Shown: piece by piece, positions 4,520 to 61,450 of the stretch
Numbering within the stretch: position 1 is the stretch's first letter
Layout of the letters: the number at the start of each line of letters is the position of its first letter
Position numbers and translations under genes: made by a program
Notes under the pieces: generated by a model
What the model saw: only the letters and a program-made list of their open reading frames with translations
Told to the model about the DNA's origin: nothing
Database searches by the model: none
Sequence record: PP582757.1
DNA length: 64,000 nt
Strand: one strand, 5' to 3'
Origin: Klebsiella phage vB_KM5a1-KLB31

Positions 4520-6201
4520 TATTCCATTACCGTAAAGCGTCCGACCTTTTTCATCTGAAGATGTTGGCCGTATGCCTGTGGGTCATGGTCACGATGTGAA
4601 ATAATAAACACGTTTGAATCTTGTAGACTATTCAGTATTGTACCAATGGTTTTAACACCGTCGGTATCAGTTGCTGAATCGAATACTTCATCCAAAATCA
4701 GGGTGGAGATATTAATACCACTCACCTTAGAAGCAATATCACGCCAAGTAAATAACAAGGCGATATCTATACGTGCCTTTTCACCTTGACTAAAGCTGAA
4801 ATAGCTAAAGTCTTCACGACCACGAGATTTAATAGACTCGTTGAACTCTTCGTCTAAAGTGAAAACATAATCAGCTTCCATAATCTTTAAGTAGTGATTA
4901 ATCTGCTTATTGAAAATTGGAATGTACTTCTTAATGATTGCACCCTTGATGCCAGAGTCCTTTAACATTTCGGTCAAGATACCACGATGGTATTTTTCCA
5001 TGACCAGAGTTGTTTTCTCTTTCACAATTTTATCCAAGTCTGCTTGGAGCACTGCAATTTCATCGGCATGACTGATGAATTCAGCTGCGGCCTGTTCGAT
5101 TAAGACTTTAACCTTCTTGGCTTTTTCTACGGCTGTAATGGCTGTAGATTTATGACCCTGAATTTGTGTCTTAATATCACGAGCAACAGATTGTTGACGA
5201 TGAACTTCATCTTGAATTACTTTCAATTCACGACGTTGAGATTGTATCTCTTGAATGTTCGTTTGTAACGTATTAGCTTTATCTTTAATCTTAGAGACAA
5301 GATTACTGTGAGTATCTAATGCCTGCATACACGTAGGACAATCACCACCATGGTCGTACAGCCCAATAACCTTATTATAGGTTTGGAAACCATTTTGAAG
5401 TGCAGCTGCTTGTCGGTCTAAAGTGTCCAGGGCGTCGCTAGGGTCATCATCAATGATTACGGCAAGTAAATCATCAGTTAACTTTTCGATGTTCGCCTTG
5501 GCGGTCCTGGCTTCACCTACGAGGTCATCGTACATTGTTTGTAGACGAGCAGCGTTATCACCAGACAATTTCTTCTGACGTTCTTCGTTGTCATTGTAAA
5601 TCTTAATCTGTTGTGTGATACCGTCTTGTTTAACATCGATTACCTGAATCTGAGAATTCGTTTCACGAATCAATGATTTGTTCAGTTTGTCCATTTCAGC
5701 TAAGATTGATACTTCGAGCAAATCTTCGACGAGCTTACGTCTTGCGGGTGTGCTAAGACCCATGAACGGAGTATAGCCTGCCGTTCCGAGCACGACAATT
5801 TGTTTAAAGCTGGAATAGGACATTCCGATGAGTTGTTCGAATTGCTCTTGGAAGTCTTTAGCGCTTGCACTTTCATCAAGTGCTTTACCGTTGACGTGGA
5901 CTTCGAAGACATTTGGTTTCTGGCCTCGTTTAACATAATATTCTTTGCCATCAAATTCCATCCAGAGTTCGACCAAAAGGTCTTTCTTATTAGAACTGTT
6001 CAGCAATTGGCCTTTCTTGACATCACGGAATGGCTTACCAAATAAAGCAAAAGTTATTGCTTCAAGGAATGTTGATTTGCCTGCTCCATTTTTACCAGTG
6101 ACAAGAGTCTTTTGATGTTTGTCAAGAATAATAGTGATGGGCTGAGCGCCCACCGACATAATATTTTTATAGATGACTTTCTTTAGCTTAAACGTTTTCA
6201 T
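4519..6201 (-). CDS. 46: Recombination endonuclease subunit gp46 (Rad50/SbcC-like ATPase)
   Basis: Walker A GKNGAGKST near the N-terminus, central coiled-coil with a CPTC zinc hook, and C-terminal signature/Walker B (LILDEVFD). The 560 aa product matches T4 gp46. Confidence 0.93.
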   Translation of the reverse strand: MKTFKLKKVIYKNIMSVGAQPITIILDKHQKTLVTGKNGAGKSTFLEAITFALFGKPFRDVKKGQLLNSSNKKDLLVELWMEFDGKEYYVKRGQKPNVFEVHVNGKALDESASAKDFQEQFEQLIGMSYSSFKQIVVLGTAGYTPFMGLSTPARRKLVEDLLEVSILAEMDKLNKSLIRETNSQIQVIDVKQDGITQQIKIYNDNEERQKKLSGDNAARLQTMYDDLVGEARTAKANIEKLTDDLLAVIIDDDPSDALDTLDRQAAALQNGFQTYNKVIGLYDHGGDCPTCMQALDTHSNLVSKIKDKANTLQTNIQEIQSQRRELKVIQDEVHRQQSVARDIKTQIQGHKSTAITAVEKAKKVKVLIEQAAAEFISHADEIAVLQADLDKIVKEKTTLVMEKYHRGILTEMLKDSGIKGAIIKKYIPIFNKQINHYLKIMEADYVFTLDEEFNESIKSRGREDFSYFSFSQGEKARIDIALLFTWRDIASKVSGINISTLILDEVFDSATDTDGVKTIGTILNSLQDSNVFIISHRDHDPQAYGQHLQMKKVGRFTVME

Positions 6202-20243: not shown

Positions 20244-20666
20244 TTATTTGCAAAGATTCCACTGAATCAGAGTATATTTTTCATTGTAGCCATCTTTAAT
20301 CATCATTGCAGCAAACTCTTCAAAGTTGTTAGAAGCATTGAAGAACGCTACAGCTTTCTTAGTAGGCTTTGCAACACGCTTTTCAGTTTTTGCAACTTTA
20401 ACTTCTTCAACAACTGGCGCTGCTTCAACGATATCGCAAGAACCATCTGAGTAGCGAGCCCATACTTCGTTACCAACTTTAAACATTGCTGCTTTACGAC
20501 CATTTGGCATTTCAACCATTTTGCCTTTCAGCTTAGTCACTTCAGTGATAACCTGATCGCCATATTCTTCATAACGATCTTTAGAAGTAACACCATCAGT
20601 AGAAGCAATCATTGGGAAGTTGAAGTGGTAATAAGCAAAGTTACGAATCGCGTAGTAAGTTTTCAT
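20244..20666 (-). CDS. Hypothetical protein
   Basis: 140 aa. Confidence 0.45.
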   Translation of the reverse strand: MKTYYAIRNFAYYHFNFPMIASTDGVTSKDRYEEYGDQVITEVTKLKGKMVEMPNGRKAAMFKVGNEVWARYSDGSCDIVEAAPVVEEVKVAKTEKRVAKPTKKAVAFFNASNNFEEFAAMMIKDGYNEKYTLIQWNLCK

Positions 20667-20751
20667 TTTATATCTCCGTTTAATTTGTTTCAGTTCGTTT
20701 AGCTGATAGGTCTATAGTAACCTGCCTTAAAGCATATGTAAACTGGAAAGT

Positions 20752-20759
20752 TATAAATA
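20752..20759 (+). promoter_or_regulatory. T4-type late promoter TATAAATA
   Basis: An exact TATAAATA octamer lies 26 nt upstream of the AAGGAG RBS and ATG of the collagen-like gene. Confidence 0.7.
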
Positions 20760-20784
20760 ATTTAGGCCTAAATAAGGAGATTTT

Positions 20785-21558
20785 ATGTTAATTGCTGCAG
20801 ACTCTATAGAAAGCCTGAACACTAAGATTCAAGAGAAGATAGCTGATGGGATGTATTTGTTTGGAGCACCAACTATTCTACCATCTACACAGTTTGATTC
20901 TGATAGATATTTTCAGTTGATGTCTGACACAAGAGATACTGTACCAGGCCCGCCAGGTGCTAAAGGGGATAAAGGAGATACTGGAGCCGATTCTACTGTT
21001 CCGGGTCCTCCAGGTGCAAAAGGAGATACAGGCGCTGCAGGACTTTCTGCTTATCAAACATGGCTTAATCTCGGGCATACTGGTACTGAACAAGATTTCT
21101 TAAATTCCATAGCAGGAACAAGACAAAAATCTGAAGCGTTTTGGACCGGGTTGTCTATAGCATTGACTGCAGGAACTACTTACAATCTGATAAACATTTT
21201 GAAAGGAACACCTACTACTGCAGGTCAATTAGCTCCATTCTTTAGAATTGCTGATAATAAATTATGGCCATTCAACTCTGACACCACAATGACATTTAAG
21301 CTTAACGTAACAGGTGTTTTTACCGGTGTGAGTCAAGCCCGTAGTCTGACAATTAACTTTGTTGGGACCAACGGTAACACTTTAGTTCAAAACCGTCCTG
21401 AAAATGCTATAGACACTATGTCATTTGCCACATTCTTTAGTGTAGACAAGAATGGACAAATGGCAACTAATGGTTCTGTTATCGATATAATCGCCAATGG
21501 AGGTGTGTTCACCATTAACAGTGTTCTTTTAGTAGCAGAACAAGTAGTGAAGTCTTAA
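20785..21558 (+). CDS. Collagen-like repeat protein (late-expressed, probably virion-associated)
   Basis: VPGPPGAKGDKGDTGADSTVPGPPGAKGDTGAAGLSAYQTW contains two runs of G-X-Y triplets. The C-terminal region is Thr/Asn/Gly-rich and beta-type. This is the only plus-strand gene within ~50 kb of minus-strand genes, and it is flanked by a late promoter and a terminator hairpin. Confidence 0.75.
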   Translation: MLIAADSIESLNTKIQEKIADGMYLFGAPTILPSTQFDSDRYFQLMSDTRDTVPGPPGAKGDKGDTGADSTVPGPPGAKGDTGAAGLSAYQTWLNLGHTGTEQDFLNSIAGTRQKSEAFWTGLSIALTAGTTYNLINILKGTPTTAGQLAPFFRIADNKLWPFNSDTTMTFKLNVTGVFTGVSQARSLTINFVGTNGNTLVQNRPENAIDTMSFATFFSVDKNGQMATNGSVIDIIANGGVFTINSVLLVAEQVVKS

Positions 21559-21564
21559 TGCCCA

Positions 21565-21586
21565 AAAGGGACCGTAAGGTCCCTTT
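21565..21586. terminator. Bidirectional hairpin (GGGACC-GUAA-GGUCCC on the plus RNA)
   Basis: AAAGGGACCGTAAGGTCCCTTT is a perfect inverted repeat followed by a T-run. Confidence 0.65.
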
Positions 21587-21587
21587 A

Positions 21588-21836
21588 TTATTTGTTAATC
21601 TGATTTTCGGCGATACGTGCCGGGAACTGAGCAACCCACTTCAGCAAAGACCATAATCCACCAATAATGAACAGTGGGAGCCATAAGATAAAGTAGAACC
21701 AGTAATCAGAAACAGATTCGATAGTATTGTTCTTGATGAATGCTTTGCACACCAAGAATCCGAGTGCAAAATAAACCAACCCAATAAAGATAGGCATAAT
21801 CCACCATAGTTGTGCTAATAGTAAAGTCATAATCAC
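21588..21836 (-). CDS. Small multi-pass membrane protein (last gene of the nucleotidyltransferase cassette)
   Basis: 82 aa with two or three hydrophobic helices (LLLAQLWWIMPIFIGLVYFALGFLV ... FYFILWLPLFIIGGLWSLL). Confidence 0.5.
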   Translation of the reverse strand: MIMTLLLAQLWWIMPIFIGLVYFALGFLVCKAFIKNNTIESVSDYWFYFILWLPLFIIGGLWSLLKWVAQFPARIAENQINK

Positions 21837-51286: not shown

Positions 51287-51294
51287 TATAAATA
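51287..51294 (+). promoter_or_regulatory. Late promoter TATAAATA for the 53-5-... baseplate operon
   Basis: An exact octamer lies 31 nt upstream of the gp53 ATG (RBS GGAGG). Confidence 0.7.
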
Positions 51295-51304
51295 TTCATA
51301 TACT

Positions 51305-51312
51305 TATTTATA
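51305..51312 (-). promoter_or_regulatory. Late promoter TATAAATA (minus strand) for the 4-2-3 operon
   Basis: The reverse complement of TATTTATA lies ~30 nt upstream of the gp4 ATG. It is arranged back-to-back and crossing with the plus-strand late promoter. Confidence 0.65.
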
Positions 51313-59400: not shown

Positions 59401-59518
59401 TGACCAGAGTGCAGTAACATTCGCTCAGTGGCGTGCATTAGTTGATAAACGTTTGAAAGATGATGTTGGCCATCCGCGTGACCCACAGAACCCAACACAG
59501 GTAAAAGTAGATGAATAA
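56423..59518 (+). CDS. 7: Baseplate wedge protein gp7
   Basis: 1031 aa, matching T4 gp7 in size (1032 aa) and position. Confidence 0.9.
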   Translation: MTVKAPSVTSLRIDKLSANQVHIRWDNVGANFYYFVEIATTRTDGVALDPSKYIWRALGYTPDNDWFEDDAIRPLNYYKMRVSVAAKGFEQSDWETTEEFQSFATNAYTFTHMREFNLVTKFIQEKFVLNNGYIDFNKDQIIASLMSEDFQFSPSYVDISSIKNFVLQEDEFHEIQGPIQKVCSDDLERIMLAELGGVLYEFERFQPMVKVSNDKGQNWKYVKLLTDRAGNPVSKVPYYQTTTTTYLLGYDRVFYGRKSNDVRWSSDTVKMSSQDVTFAKIGDQLKLGFDVEIFGTYARLPLAVSTIAEAMTVSDDFIYVAGRGKVYKAKVTNAPIDLDPGSPSFGEKLFETGFSTIVDNTKAVCFKMDSVQGNTYALITGEVKEEGQDPTIPDNVISSESKGVYLLDPETDVWTRVFGNTEEERRRIEHGWTSMGANGDEVYFSSSNFAYQVENDPEVVQEYPDQVNEGVKFVYEPQYIHDKHYLMMSFRTSAENGWTKFKPGRMDYYAEPFFAWSRRDKTRCWITNSRRCMVVYEDMLYQKVVDEFGSGSPDRIIHETWDKGHVTVTCPNIEFQGFKRYASGIMLHKNTGELIGYFEFDYRVRDEVRLIWKPKEIMFTADLQGQEREIPWTPEVTNKERDPDLRPLLNKMMPDSYLLQDTNFEKFCEYYLQFLSDGSGTYYNNLLNLIRDQYPREEDAWNYLWSEIYKRNIYLSKDKRDEVVRFFEARQSDFWMTKGTEASYKFLFKLLYNEDVEIDIESKNTTEYDILVESDNINEDIVGQTIYTKTGRSNVTYLERYYNEGKLQWRVTIHNLLGNFNAGQEILSERTAFKGMIIRGVRGKELLSNTIEYINRNRSYYVMTIKSNLPTSRYRGDVLRFVHPVGFGFIGITLLTMFINAGLTLKHVETILNIYKNYRWDAGLPSVYPDRVAVMDSNGDVERDPVTGEVRYDTPPNAGLPFPIRPDYIDENNNSMWHGLNPDERRRPMSPLFDQSAVTFAQWRALVDKRLKDDVGHPRDPQNPTQVKVDE

Positions 59519-60521
59519 CTCTTCAGTAGTTTACCGTTCGATTATAACTTCAAAGTTCAGAACGGAAAAGATGTTAAACTTCTATCAAACTATCGGTGAT
59601 GGTGAAGACCAGAATACGATGTATGTAACATTCGGCCGCTCAGAACCTTGGGCGGCCAACGAGAATGACCCTGGCTTTGCACCACCATATCCGGTTGATG
59701 ACGTAGAAGGTGTAGAAGATATGTGGACCCACATGATGGGTTCTGTAAAAGTTTATAAGAGTATGCTGGATTCTATTATCCCTCGTAAAGATTGGGGCGA
59801 TGTTCGTTATCCAAACCCAAGAAATTTCCAGATTGGCGATATCATAGTTGCAAACTCTGCTCCATATAACCGAACTGATGCCGGTTCTGGCTGGATGGTT
59901 TATCGTTGTGTTGATATTCCTGATGAAGGTACATGCTCTATTTTCAGTATTACCGAAAAGCATGAGTGTATTAAGCTAGGTGGTATTTGGACTTCAGATG
60001 CATCAAGTATGCGTCCGCCTTCAGGTACACGAGATACCGAAGGCGACAATATCATTAATATGGGTGATGGTTACTTATGGGAATATCTCTATGAGATTCC
60101 ACCTGACGTAAGTATTAACCGTTGCACAAACGAATATATTGTTGTTCCGTGGCCTGAAGAAGTCAGAGCTGACCCTGAACGTTGGGGTTATGAAAATAAT
60201 CTTACCTGGGAACAGGATGATTATGGAATAGTGTTCAGGGTAAAAGCTAATACTATTCGATTCAAAGCTTTCTTGGACTCTGTTTATTTCCCTGAATTCA
60301 GTCTGCCAGGTAACAAAGGATTCCGTCAAATTTCTATCATAAGCAATCCGCTTGAAAAGAAAGTTATCCCTAGTGACCCTAATGTCAAGGCAATCAAAGA
60401 GTATTATGATGCTGTAGATATGGAACGTCATTCAGGTGAAATGATTTACATGGAAAACCGTCCTCCTGTTATTCGTTCAATGGACCAAACAGAAGAAGTC
60501 AACATTATCTTCGAATTCTAA
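59511..60521 (+). CDS. 8: Baseplate wedge protein gp8
   Basis: 336 aa, in the T4 gene-8 position. Confidence 0.85.
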   Translation: MNNSSVVYRSIITSKFRTEKMLNFYQTIGDGEDQNTMYVTFGRSEPWAANENDPGFAPPYPVDDVEGVEDMWTHMMGSVKVYKSMLDSIIPRKDWGDVRYPNPRNFQIGDIIVANSAPYNRTDAGSGWMVYRCVDIPDEGTCSIFSITEKHECIKLGGIWTSDASSMRPPSGTRDTEGDNIINMGDGYLWEYLYEIPPDVSINRCTNEYIVVPWPEEVRADPERWGYENNLTWEQDDYGIVFRVKANTIRFKAFLDSVYFPEFSLPGNKGFRQISIISNPLEKKVIPSDPNVKAIKEYYDAVDMERHSGEMIYMENRPPVIRSMDQTEEVNIIFEF

Positions 60522-60550: not shown

Positions 60551-60558
60551 TATAAATA
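60551..60558 (+). promoter_or_regulatory. Late promoter TATAAATA upstream of gene 9
   Basis: An exact octamer lies 29 nt upstream of the gp9 ATG (RBS TGAGG). Confidence 0.7.
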
Positions 60559-60586
60559 AATCTATAAACTAATAGTGAGGCAGAAT

Positions 60587-61450
60587 ATGGTTACCCAAGA
60601 ACCTAAAAAATTAATTGACGTCGGAGAGATTGGTAACGCCTCTACCGGCGATATCCTCTTTGACGGTGGTGAAAAAATAAACCACGACATGAACCAAATC
60701 TATAACACCTTTGGTGACCAACGTCTTTTTGTAAATGATTCTGGCAATAATACTCAGATGTTGCATGCCACTGGTTATTACCAGAAACCGACTATTGCTG
60801 AATGGTCTGCTCAAGTTCCTCTTGGAGCTTTGCGTGATGTTGATGCATCCACTGGTCCTGTTTTGTGTGTTCTTCAACGTGGTAAAGTTGGCGAAGGCAT
60901 GGTGTTTATTAACTCCAACGGAAGTATAAGCCCTACTAACTATTTTGAAATCCAGGCATTAGATTCATTTGTTTCTGTTCCTACAGGAACTTTAAAAATC
61001 GTTCAACCATTTTGCCGTGTTACTGTTTGGTGTGTATCGGTAGAAGGTGGTATTTCACGTTGGGACTACTCAATTGAAAGCATGTTTGGTAATAAACATG
61101 TGCCATTAGATAAAACGTTCACTTTAAGCTCTGCGCAACGTGAAATTCAAATTGCTCCTGTAAACGCATATCAGACAATTAAACTTTTCTTGACATGTGC
61201 CTCTACAGATGGATTGAAAGTCAAGACATCCGAAGTGATGCTTTATATTGATTCTAAAGCTTCTAAAGTTTACTCTACCGAATATGCAGTAATTCGTAAA
61301 GGTAACGTGGATGAAGATGATGAAATATATTCGATTAACTACATATTTGATAACAACGGATTTATTTCTGCAGTAGCATCCAGTACGACTCAGAACATGC
61401 AACTAGCAGTTAAGGTCGTTAGCACACAATCATTTGGGGTTCCAGTATAA
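60587..61450 (+). CDS. 9: Baseplate wedge / long-tail-fibre socket protein gp9
   Basis: MVTQEPKKLIDVGEIGNASTGDILFDGGEKINHDM...; 287 aa; T4 gp9-like. Confidence 0.9.
   Translation: MVTQEPKKLIDVGEIGNASTGDILFDGGEKINHDMNQIYNTFGDQRLFVNDSGNNTQMLHATGYYQKPTIAEWSAQVPLGALRDVDASTGPVLCVLQRGKVGEGMVFINSNGSISPTNYFEIQALDSFVSVPTGTLKIVQPFCRVTVWCVSVEGGISRWDYSIESMFGNKHVPLDKTFTLSSAQREIQIAPVNAYQTIKLFLTCASTDGLKVKTSEVMLYIDSKASKVYSTEYAVIRKGNVDEDDEIYSINYIFDNNGFISAVASSTTQNMQLAVKVVSTQSFGVPV

Follow-up and report, generated by a model that had tools for sequence, protein, structure and literature searches.

Why does a gene with the signals of late transcription lie on the plus strand among minus-strand genes, and what does it make? 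The question is raised by an open reading frame (ORF) encoding 257 amino acids in Klebsiella phage vB_KM5a1-KLB31 (sequence record PP582757.1), of which a stretch of 64,000 nucleotides (the window) was analysed. A preliminary description of this DNA had proposed a late, virion-associated decoration, fibre or adhesin that was acquired as a self-contained module. On balance, we lean towards the view that this gene, here called the knob-fibre gene, encodes a dispensable, late-made, homotrimeric fibre of the virion surface, composed of three modules (an N-terminal anchor, a collagen-like stalk and a C-terminal knob) and most likely anchored to the capsid.

The ORF is a real gene under purifying selection. 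At the DNA level, positions 20600-21700 of the window are 97-98% identical to the Edwardsiella ictaluri phages PEi20 and PEi26 (Kanagawavirus, Straboviridae), with no other DNA-level matches. The PEi20 orthologue is labelled "conserved hypothetical protein" in GenBank and "tail needle knob" in RefSeq. Between the window and PEi20, the gene has 16 synonymous and 5 non-synonymous codon differences (ratio of the proportions of non-synonymous and synonymous differences, pN/pS, ~0.10), and three of the five amino-acid replacements fall inside the interruption of the collagen-like part. A chance ORF or a pseudogene was rejected, given this ratio and the homologues described below. In the PEi20 annotation, the knob-fibre gene is the sole plus-strand gene from gene 43 to gene 4 (~52 kb), the remainder being on the minus strand, and on that annotation the earlier statement that it is the only plus-strand gene in ~50 kb holds. 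Other plus-strand ORFs in a crude census of the window overlap annotated minus-strand genes or lie in the tRNA region.

The C-terminal part of the protein is a knob of the type found in phage Sf6. Residues 109-253 matched PF16532 (Phage_tail_NK) with an E-value of 3.7e-29 (102 bits against a cut-off of 27) and PHROG 1030 at 1e-70, and phmmer against the Protein Data Bank (PDB) returned the HS1 (4k6b) and Sf6 (3rwn) knobs, both at E ~4e-27. In the AlphaFold2 (AF2) model, the predicted local distance difference test (pLDDT) of the knob part was mostly 75-93, and Foldseek aligned this predicted structure with 3rwn at E 3e-14 and a template-modelling (TM) score of 0.86, with weaker matches to C1q-like heads, EDA/TNF, PRD1 P5 and the exosporium protein ExsFA. 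In agreement, E117, K172, S219 and D221 align with Sf6 E146, K200, S248 and D250, which contact L-glutamate, and these four residues are invariant in 20 aligned sequences. Since the conserved ligand site is at a subunit interface and a collagen-like stalk precedes the domain, we infer that the knob forms a homotrimer. The domain earlier likened to fibre or adhesin tips is a genuine knob of the Sf6/HS1 type, which is a domain of virion proteins. RB43 and other T4-like phages have been reported to encode knob homologues of unknown function (Leavitt et al. 2013, PMC3741392).

The N-terminal 50 residues probably form a divergent DUF1737 domain, a new finding here. PF08410 (DUF1737) was the top Pfam match for the 257-residue protein and for all seven full-length homologues (E 6e-6 to 0.05), the matches in the homologues span nearly the full domain, and two of the seven exceed the gathering score (26.4 and 26.3 bits). 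An hhalign comparison of the N-domain alignment with a set of five canonical DUF1737 sequences, one from a Burkholderia phage protein and the others from NanS-p esterases of Stx phages, gave a probability of 95.9% (E 6e-9, 43 columns); with the single 933W sequence the probability was 77.6%. An exhaustive search with the N-domain profile found, besides members of the family, the small stand-alone proteins P0124 and P0128, which pass the Pfam DUF1737 threshold independently. The only results of a word-indexed search with the profile were four truncated or frameshifted copies of this gene, with no independent families among them, and a PHROG scan with the N-domain alone found nothing. Among PDB sequences, the profile gave only chance matches of the GCN4 type, and no DUF1737 structure was detectable by sequence in the PDB copy used. 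The full-length AF2 model has a strand-helix-strand-strand order at this end (E2-5, H8-20, E24-32 and E41-47; pLDDT 58-73). By cryo-electron microscopy (cryo-EM), the DUF1737 of phi24B gp84 consists of one helix and three antiparallel strands, and forms a hexamer that plugs the central pore of the capsid hexons, making it a capsid-binding decoration domain (bioRxiv April 2026, 10.64898/2026.04.10.717836). The 933W N-terminus used in our comparison carries the Tyr42, Gly54 and SISSP positions described in that preprint (10.64898/2026.04.10.717836).

Anchor and knob are joined by a collagen-like stalk and a short linker. As previously described, there are two runs of collagen-type G-X-Y triplets (residues 55-69 and 74-88); each has five triplets, with STVP between them, and they look like an old duplication at the DNA level. 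The Pfam Collagen model (PF01391) scored 20.9 bits on the 257-residue protein, below its cut-off of 27.2, and 56 bits on the homologue P0122. Stalk length among homologues ranges from zero, in RB43-like phages and Carvaje, to long runs that pass the Pfam threshold, and a relative with 96% identity differs by a single triplet. The linker, predicted by AF2 as two helices (89-95 and 102-109), has the consensus SAYQxW...G..GT..DFL...AG and no match in Pfam. In the relative P0121, the linker motif occurs three times, alternating with collagen segments. A further case of a capsid-binding domain joined to a collagen-like stalk is the metagenomic protein P0019 (421 residues), which has a Phage_cement_2 (capsid cement) domain and long collagen repeats.

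The signals around the gene point to late expression. The late-promoter octamer, the ribosome binding site and the bidirectional GNRA hairpin of the preliminary description were all confirmed (Table 1), and we infer that TATAAATA upstream of the gene acts as a late promoter. This octamer is not enriched in the window (5 copies observed against 4.3 expected by chance), and it is position rather than count that gives the copies their weight: three of the five lie just upstream of plus-strand gene starts, namely those of the knob-fibre gene, gp53 (51325) and gp9 (60575). Genes 55 and 45 are annotated in the part of PEi20 that matches the window. Downstream, the hairpin fills the 29-nt gap between the stop of the knob-fibre gene and that of a convergent minus-strand ORF of 82 residues. 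It folds on both strands, with folding energies of -15.6 kcal/mol (z -4.6) on the plus strand, followed by UUUAUUAUUU, and -14.2 kcal/mol (z -3.3) on the minus strand, followed by UUUU. On the other side, an early-like promoter match on the minus strand stands back-to-back with the late promoter, and its GTTTACA occurs at the same place in phages C6 and AnYang. A MotA-type middle promoter on the minus strand (TGCTTTA, ~20725-20731) was set aside, as its spacing to the -10 match is too short.

These elements suggest how the gene might be expressed within opposing transcription. Expression would be insulated from the surrounding early genes, with a gp55-dependent late promoter driving the plus strand. 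The hairpin would stop the late transcript as well as incoming minus-strand early transcripts, and the early-type promoter would restart minus-strand transcription past the hairpin. The cassette looks designed to coexist with early transcription in the opposite direction.

Two other octamer sites in the window were seen. Between genes 4 (minus) and 53 (plus) there is what looks like a divergent late-promoter pair, made up of one TATAAATA on the plus strand at 51287 and another on the minus strand at 51305, 18 nt away (region 51287-51312). Further along, little DNA separates gp8 (59511-60521) from gp9 (60575-61450), and TATAAATA lies at 60551; PEi20 has two extra small ORFs (gp276 and gp275) between gp8 and gp9, so the window is ~785 bp shorter there and distinct from PEi20.

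The cassette is conserved among T4-like phages. In all six relatives examined (PEi20, fHe-Yen9-01, C6, AnYang, RB43 and Margaery), the knob gene opposes flanking minus-strand genes close to nrdC.10/nrdC.11 and has a (T/C)ATAAATA octamer at -30 to -33 from the ATG, within differing flanking sequence. The position of the octamer is kept in four T4-like genera, including Tegunavirus, Dhakavirus and Pseudotevenvirus, the form in Pseudotevenvirus being CATAAATA. A GC hairpin directly follows the stop codon in PEi20, fHe-Yen9-01, RB43, C6, AnYang and Margaery. In C6 and AnYang, the cassette lies exactly between nrdC.10 and nrdC.11; in T4, which lacks the knob gene, these two genes are adjacent with nothing between them. 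With its own promoter and terminator and its place within a conserved backbone, the cassette is moron-like. The proposed acquisition was not borne out: the GC content of the gene equals that of its surroundings (0.404 against 0.406 for the window), and the same region is occupied in several genera, though not in T4. Recent foreign acquisition was therefore rejected, and the location near nrdC.10/nrdC.11 in several genera indicates that the gene is old in the T4-like lineage. The remainder of the earlier proposal, a late virion-surface fibre, decoration or adhesin in a self-contained module, fits the conserved cassette, the knob and the probable homology to a capsid-binding domain.

Two features of this region were noted in addition. 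In Pseudotevenvirus, CATAAATA is at 2971-2978 of the RB43 locus (L003) and at the same position in Margaery (L012); read on the opposite strand, the first three bases of this octamer form the ATG of a divergent DNA methyltransferase gene, so the promoter and the methyltransferase start codon overlap. In the window, the cassette is flanked by two minus-strand ORFs (20244-20666, 140 residues; 21588-21836, 82 residues and hydrophobic-looking) of which neither T4 nor AnYang has an equivalent between nrdC.10 and nrdC.11, and the entire 1.6-kb interval around the cassette is extra relative to T4.

Table 1. Features of the knob-fibre locus (window coordinates).
Feature	Position	Strand	Remarks
Sigma-70/T4-early-like promoter match	20714..20742	-	GTTTACA, 17 nt, TACTAT; consensus scan 9/12, consensus match only
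T4-type late promoter octamer TATAAATA	20752..20759	+	exact match, 33 nt upstream of ATG
Shine-Dalgarno AAGGAG	20774..20779	+	read from sequence, 5 nt before ATG
Coding sequence	20785..21558	+	ATG start, 257 residues, coordinates include stop codon; orthologue of PEi20 gp099
N-terminal domain, probable divergent DUF1737, putative capsid anchor	20785..20934	+	residues 1-50; Pfam and hhalign
Collagen-like stalk	20947..21048	+	residues 55-88, two G-X-Y runs
Helix-turn-helix linker SAYQTWLNLGHTGTEQDFLNSIAG	21046..21114	+	residues 88-110; conserved across aligned homologues
Sf6-type knob, TNF/C1q-like jelly roll	21109..21555	+	residues 109-257; Pfam PF16532, PDB, Foldseek
GC-rich hairpin, GUAA loop	21565..21586	both	terminator-like, between convergent stop codons

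The genomic setting of the homologues bears on where the protein acts. Full-length homologues with 46-58% identity are present in Tegunavirus fHe-Yen9-01, in Dhakavirus C6 and AnYang and other Escherichia T4-like phages, and in the Pseudotevenvirus members RB43, Miller, Margaery and CfP1; the 57-kb siphovirus Klebsiella Carvaje has one with 41% identity. In total, 42 phage records hold a full-length copy, with a patchy distribution. In Carvaje, the gene lies between TerL and the portal gene, and in Carvaje-like metagenomic phages the slot after TerL holds the same N-domain with the knob, in a 520-residue repeat protein or in a 151-residue protein; this pattern of a conserved anchor with a variable tip supports attachment to the particle. 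Klebsiella phage P8734 (147 kb) has a collagen-knob gene with a different N-terminus two genes after the major capsid protein gene. The next gene shares the N-terminal motif of the collagen-knob protein and belongs to families annotated "head fiber". At 4848-5800 of this locus (L008), the N-terminal motifs MSIASAGVAGVVYGRTLV and MATSGVAGLVYGTKLI are shared and the distal parts differ (collagen-knob against a "head fiber"-type C-terminus), and this looks like a pair of paralogous fibres that share an anchor. The T4-like Aeromonas phage 44RR2.8t encodes a protein with a fibre repeat and a knob between genes 23 and 24. Those genes of the relatives that belong to a structural module are in the head module, and this synteny in Carvaje, P8734 and 44RR2.8t supports a head location. 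In addition, a knob-only homologue of Ackermannviridae was detected in CsCl-purified Sajous1 virions, and the JA15 homologue is annotated as a structural protein. As a separate observation, the 44RR2.8t insertion (L023, 1771-2935) comprises an ORF of 95 residues and a protein of 288 residues with a tail-fibre repeat and an Sf6-type knob, which is unusual for the core T4 head gene cluster.

The preliminary description had named a frameshifted pseudogene state in relatives as evidence against its proposal. Broken alleles are present in metagenomic relatives (P0112, P0114, P0115, P0118 and P0122), in the form of a frameshift after the N-domain, a C-terminal frameshift, or, in one case, a large in-frame deletion that leaves the N-domain fused to only the final 14 knob residues. 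Since the majority of copies are intact and under constraint, this indicates dispensability rather than loss of function here. Unless these alleles are assembly errors, RB43-like, Carvaje-like and Dhakavirus-like phages can do without the gene.

Taken together, a fibre with three functional parts can be proposed. The DUF1737-type anchor of ~50 residues would hold the fibre on the particle; the most likely site is the centre of the hexons of the capsid shell, which is used in phi24B. The stalk, variable in length, would consist of a short triple helix of collagen type and the small helical linker. At the distal end, the Sf6-type TNF/C1q-like knob, with L-glutamate pockets at its subunit interfaces, would offer a binding surface. 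It may bind the bacterial envelope or environmental glycans, and so help the phage find or stay near its hosts.

Several observations weigh against this proposal. The PF08410 score of the 257-residue protein itself is weak, at 13.8 bits against a cut-off of 24, so the DUF1737 assignment rests on family-level and profile–profile evidence. When modelled alone from a five-sequence alignment, the N-domain gave two helices with low confidence (pLDDT 60), a different fold from that in the full-length model. PEi20 encodes Hoc, which in T4 sits at hexon centres, and the phi24B-type binding site may therefore be taken or different. There is also a symmetry mismatch, in that DUF1737 is hexameric in phi24B and the collagen and knob parts are trimeric; SPP1 gp12, a collagen-like trimer on hexon centres, is a precedent for such a mismatch. 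Both PHROGs and RefSeq file the knob family under "tail", and even in P22 and Sf6 the knob has no demonstrated receptor role. The P22 knob is not essential and does not set host range, although the kinetics of DNA delivery shift when the needle tip is changed (Leavitt et al. 2013, PMC3741392). The Sajous1 virion list is not clean, since it includes non-structural proteins such as RegB. Literature searches on virion proteomics and transcripts of PEi20, fHe-Yen9-01, GuL6, Carvaje and JA15 turned up nothing on the knob-fibre protein.

The alternative that survives best places the protein on the tail, as an accessory fibre or receptor-binding protein of the tail or baseplate whose N-domain docks on the tail and whose knob contacts the outer membrane, like the tip of the Sf6 needle. 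The only solved homologues of the knob are indeed tips of tail needles, tail-fibre PHROGs often contain collagen-like segments and the SAYxxW linker, and one segment of the 44RR2.8t homologue matches the Pfam family "Phage tail fiber repeats". The "tail" labels of PHROG 1030 and RefSeq agree with a tail location, although these are transferred names and not tests. However, the protein has neither the N-terminal nor the coiled-coil needle part of P22 gp26, and the phage is a myovirus without a tail needle. Furthermore, the N-domain is probably homologous to a capsid-binding domain, and copies in structural modules lie in the head module and not in the tail module. We therefore regard a tail fibre as improbable, though the strongest of the alternatives.

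Less probable still is a late protein that is not part of the virion; it would, for example, function within the cell, or bind to debris or host surfaces once lysis has set it free. Such a role would suit the location of the gene within the hyperplastic nrdC region, among non-structural accessory genes, as well as its dispensability and broken alleles, and the virion location of the protein is putative. However, the knob and probably also the N-domain come from virion proteins, and proteins attached to the particle typically combine a conserved anchor with a tip that varies; reading the sequence by eye, with no formal test, revealed neither a signal peptide nor a membrane segment. Lastly, the gene could be what is left of a fibre gene gained by horizontal transfer, now in decay or without function. 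The patchy distribution, the absence of the gene from T4 and the frameshifted or deleted alleles in metagenomes might suggest this, but it is very improbable in view of the pN/pS ratio, the intact full-length copies across several T4-like genera and a siphovirus, the conserved promoter, ribosome binding site and terminator, and the invariant ligand-site residues.

The gene annotation "tail needle knob" and the knob homology in T4-like phages were already known, the latter since 2013; what is new is how the three parts are combined and where the protein is likely to be located. Should it prove to be a capsid fibre, the widespread name "tail needle knob" would be misleading in dozens of T4-like, Vequintavirinae-like and Carvaje-like phage genomes, and the DUF1737 capsid anchor, characterised only in 2026, would extend from Stx podoviruses to T4-type capsids, raising the question of how it coexists with Hoc. 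A broader and more tentative idea, which we consider possible and no stronger than that, is that some T4-like phages bear a second class of capsid appendage besides Hoc. These would be C1q-like trimeric fibres held in the gp23 hexon pores by DUF1737, either as two trimers per six-fold ring or as one with partial occupancy. Their stalks would be tuned by insertions and deletions of collagen triplets, their anchor would be reused across unrelated phage families with interchangeable tips, and they would let the phage adhere reversibly to host envelopes or to mucosal glycans of animals or fish. Were this so, the fibre would represent a new, portable system for capsid display and adhesion. The compact, modular design (an anchor of 50 residues, an adjustable stalk and a stable trimeric head) is attractive for phage display, and for engineering adhesion in phages for aquaculture therapy, as the host Edwardsiella ictaluri is a fish pathogen. 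If the protein is bound to the tail or is not part of the virion, it is an ordinary accessory gene product.

Comparison with known systems places each module of the fibre. The C-terminal 145 residues are homologous to the Sf6 gp9 and HS1 knobs (3RWN and 4K6B), with ~40% identity, the same predicted fold, and conservation of the Glu, Lys, Ser and Asp that hold L-glutamate and of a universal Arg. The resemblance to the P22/Sf6 needle (gp26/gp9) ends there: the 257-residue protein lacks the plug-binding N-terminus and the coiled-coil shaft, its Pfam and PDB matches are confined to residues 109-253, its stalk is collagen-like, and the phage is contractile-tailed and T4-like. With no needle parts, and in a type of phage without a needle, "tail needle knob" therefore names the domain and not the role of the protein. 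At the other end, the N-terminal 45-50 residues align across almost the whole DUF1737 domain of phi24B gp84 and 933W NanS-p, with the same order of a helix and three strands in the full-length model and the same plan of an N-terminal module, a linker and a variable functional part. In contrast, identity is only ~20%, and the distal part is a collagen-knob fibre instead of a SASA esterase. The phi24B capsid is that of a T=9 podovirus, whereas the T4-type capsid is prolate and carries Hoc, and capsid binding by the 257-residue protein is putative.

Analogous designs are known elsewhere. SPP1 gp12, a small protein, is a dispensable collagen-like trimer that binds the centres of capsid hexamers, as proposed for the knob fibre; no sequence relation is expected, and the review of gp12 describes a collagen-like spike and makes no mention of a knob domain. 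The PRD1 P5 spike and proteins of the C1q and BclA type share the layout of an N-terminal anchor, a short collagen-like stalk and a trimeric TNF/C1q-like head. The match to these proteins is only at the level of the fold (~12% identity); P5 stands at the vertex of a membrane-containing phage, and C1q and BclA are cellular proteins. Finally, T4 Hoc and the phi29 gp8.5 head fibre are, like the proposed fibre, dispensable outer capsid appendages thought to aid adhesion and not stability, although their folds are unrelated to that of the knob fibre, Hoc being a monomer of immunoglobulin (Ig)-like domains and gp8.5 a helical coiled coil.

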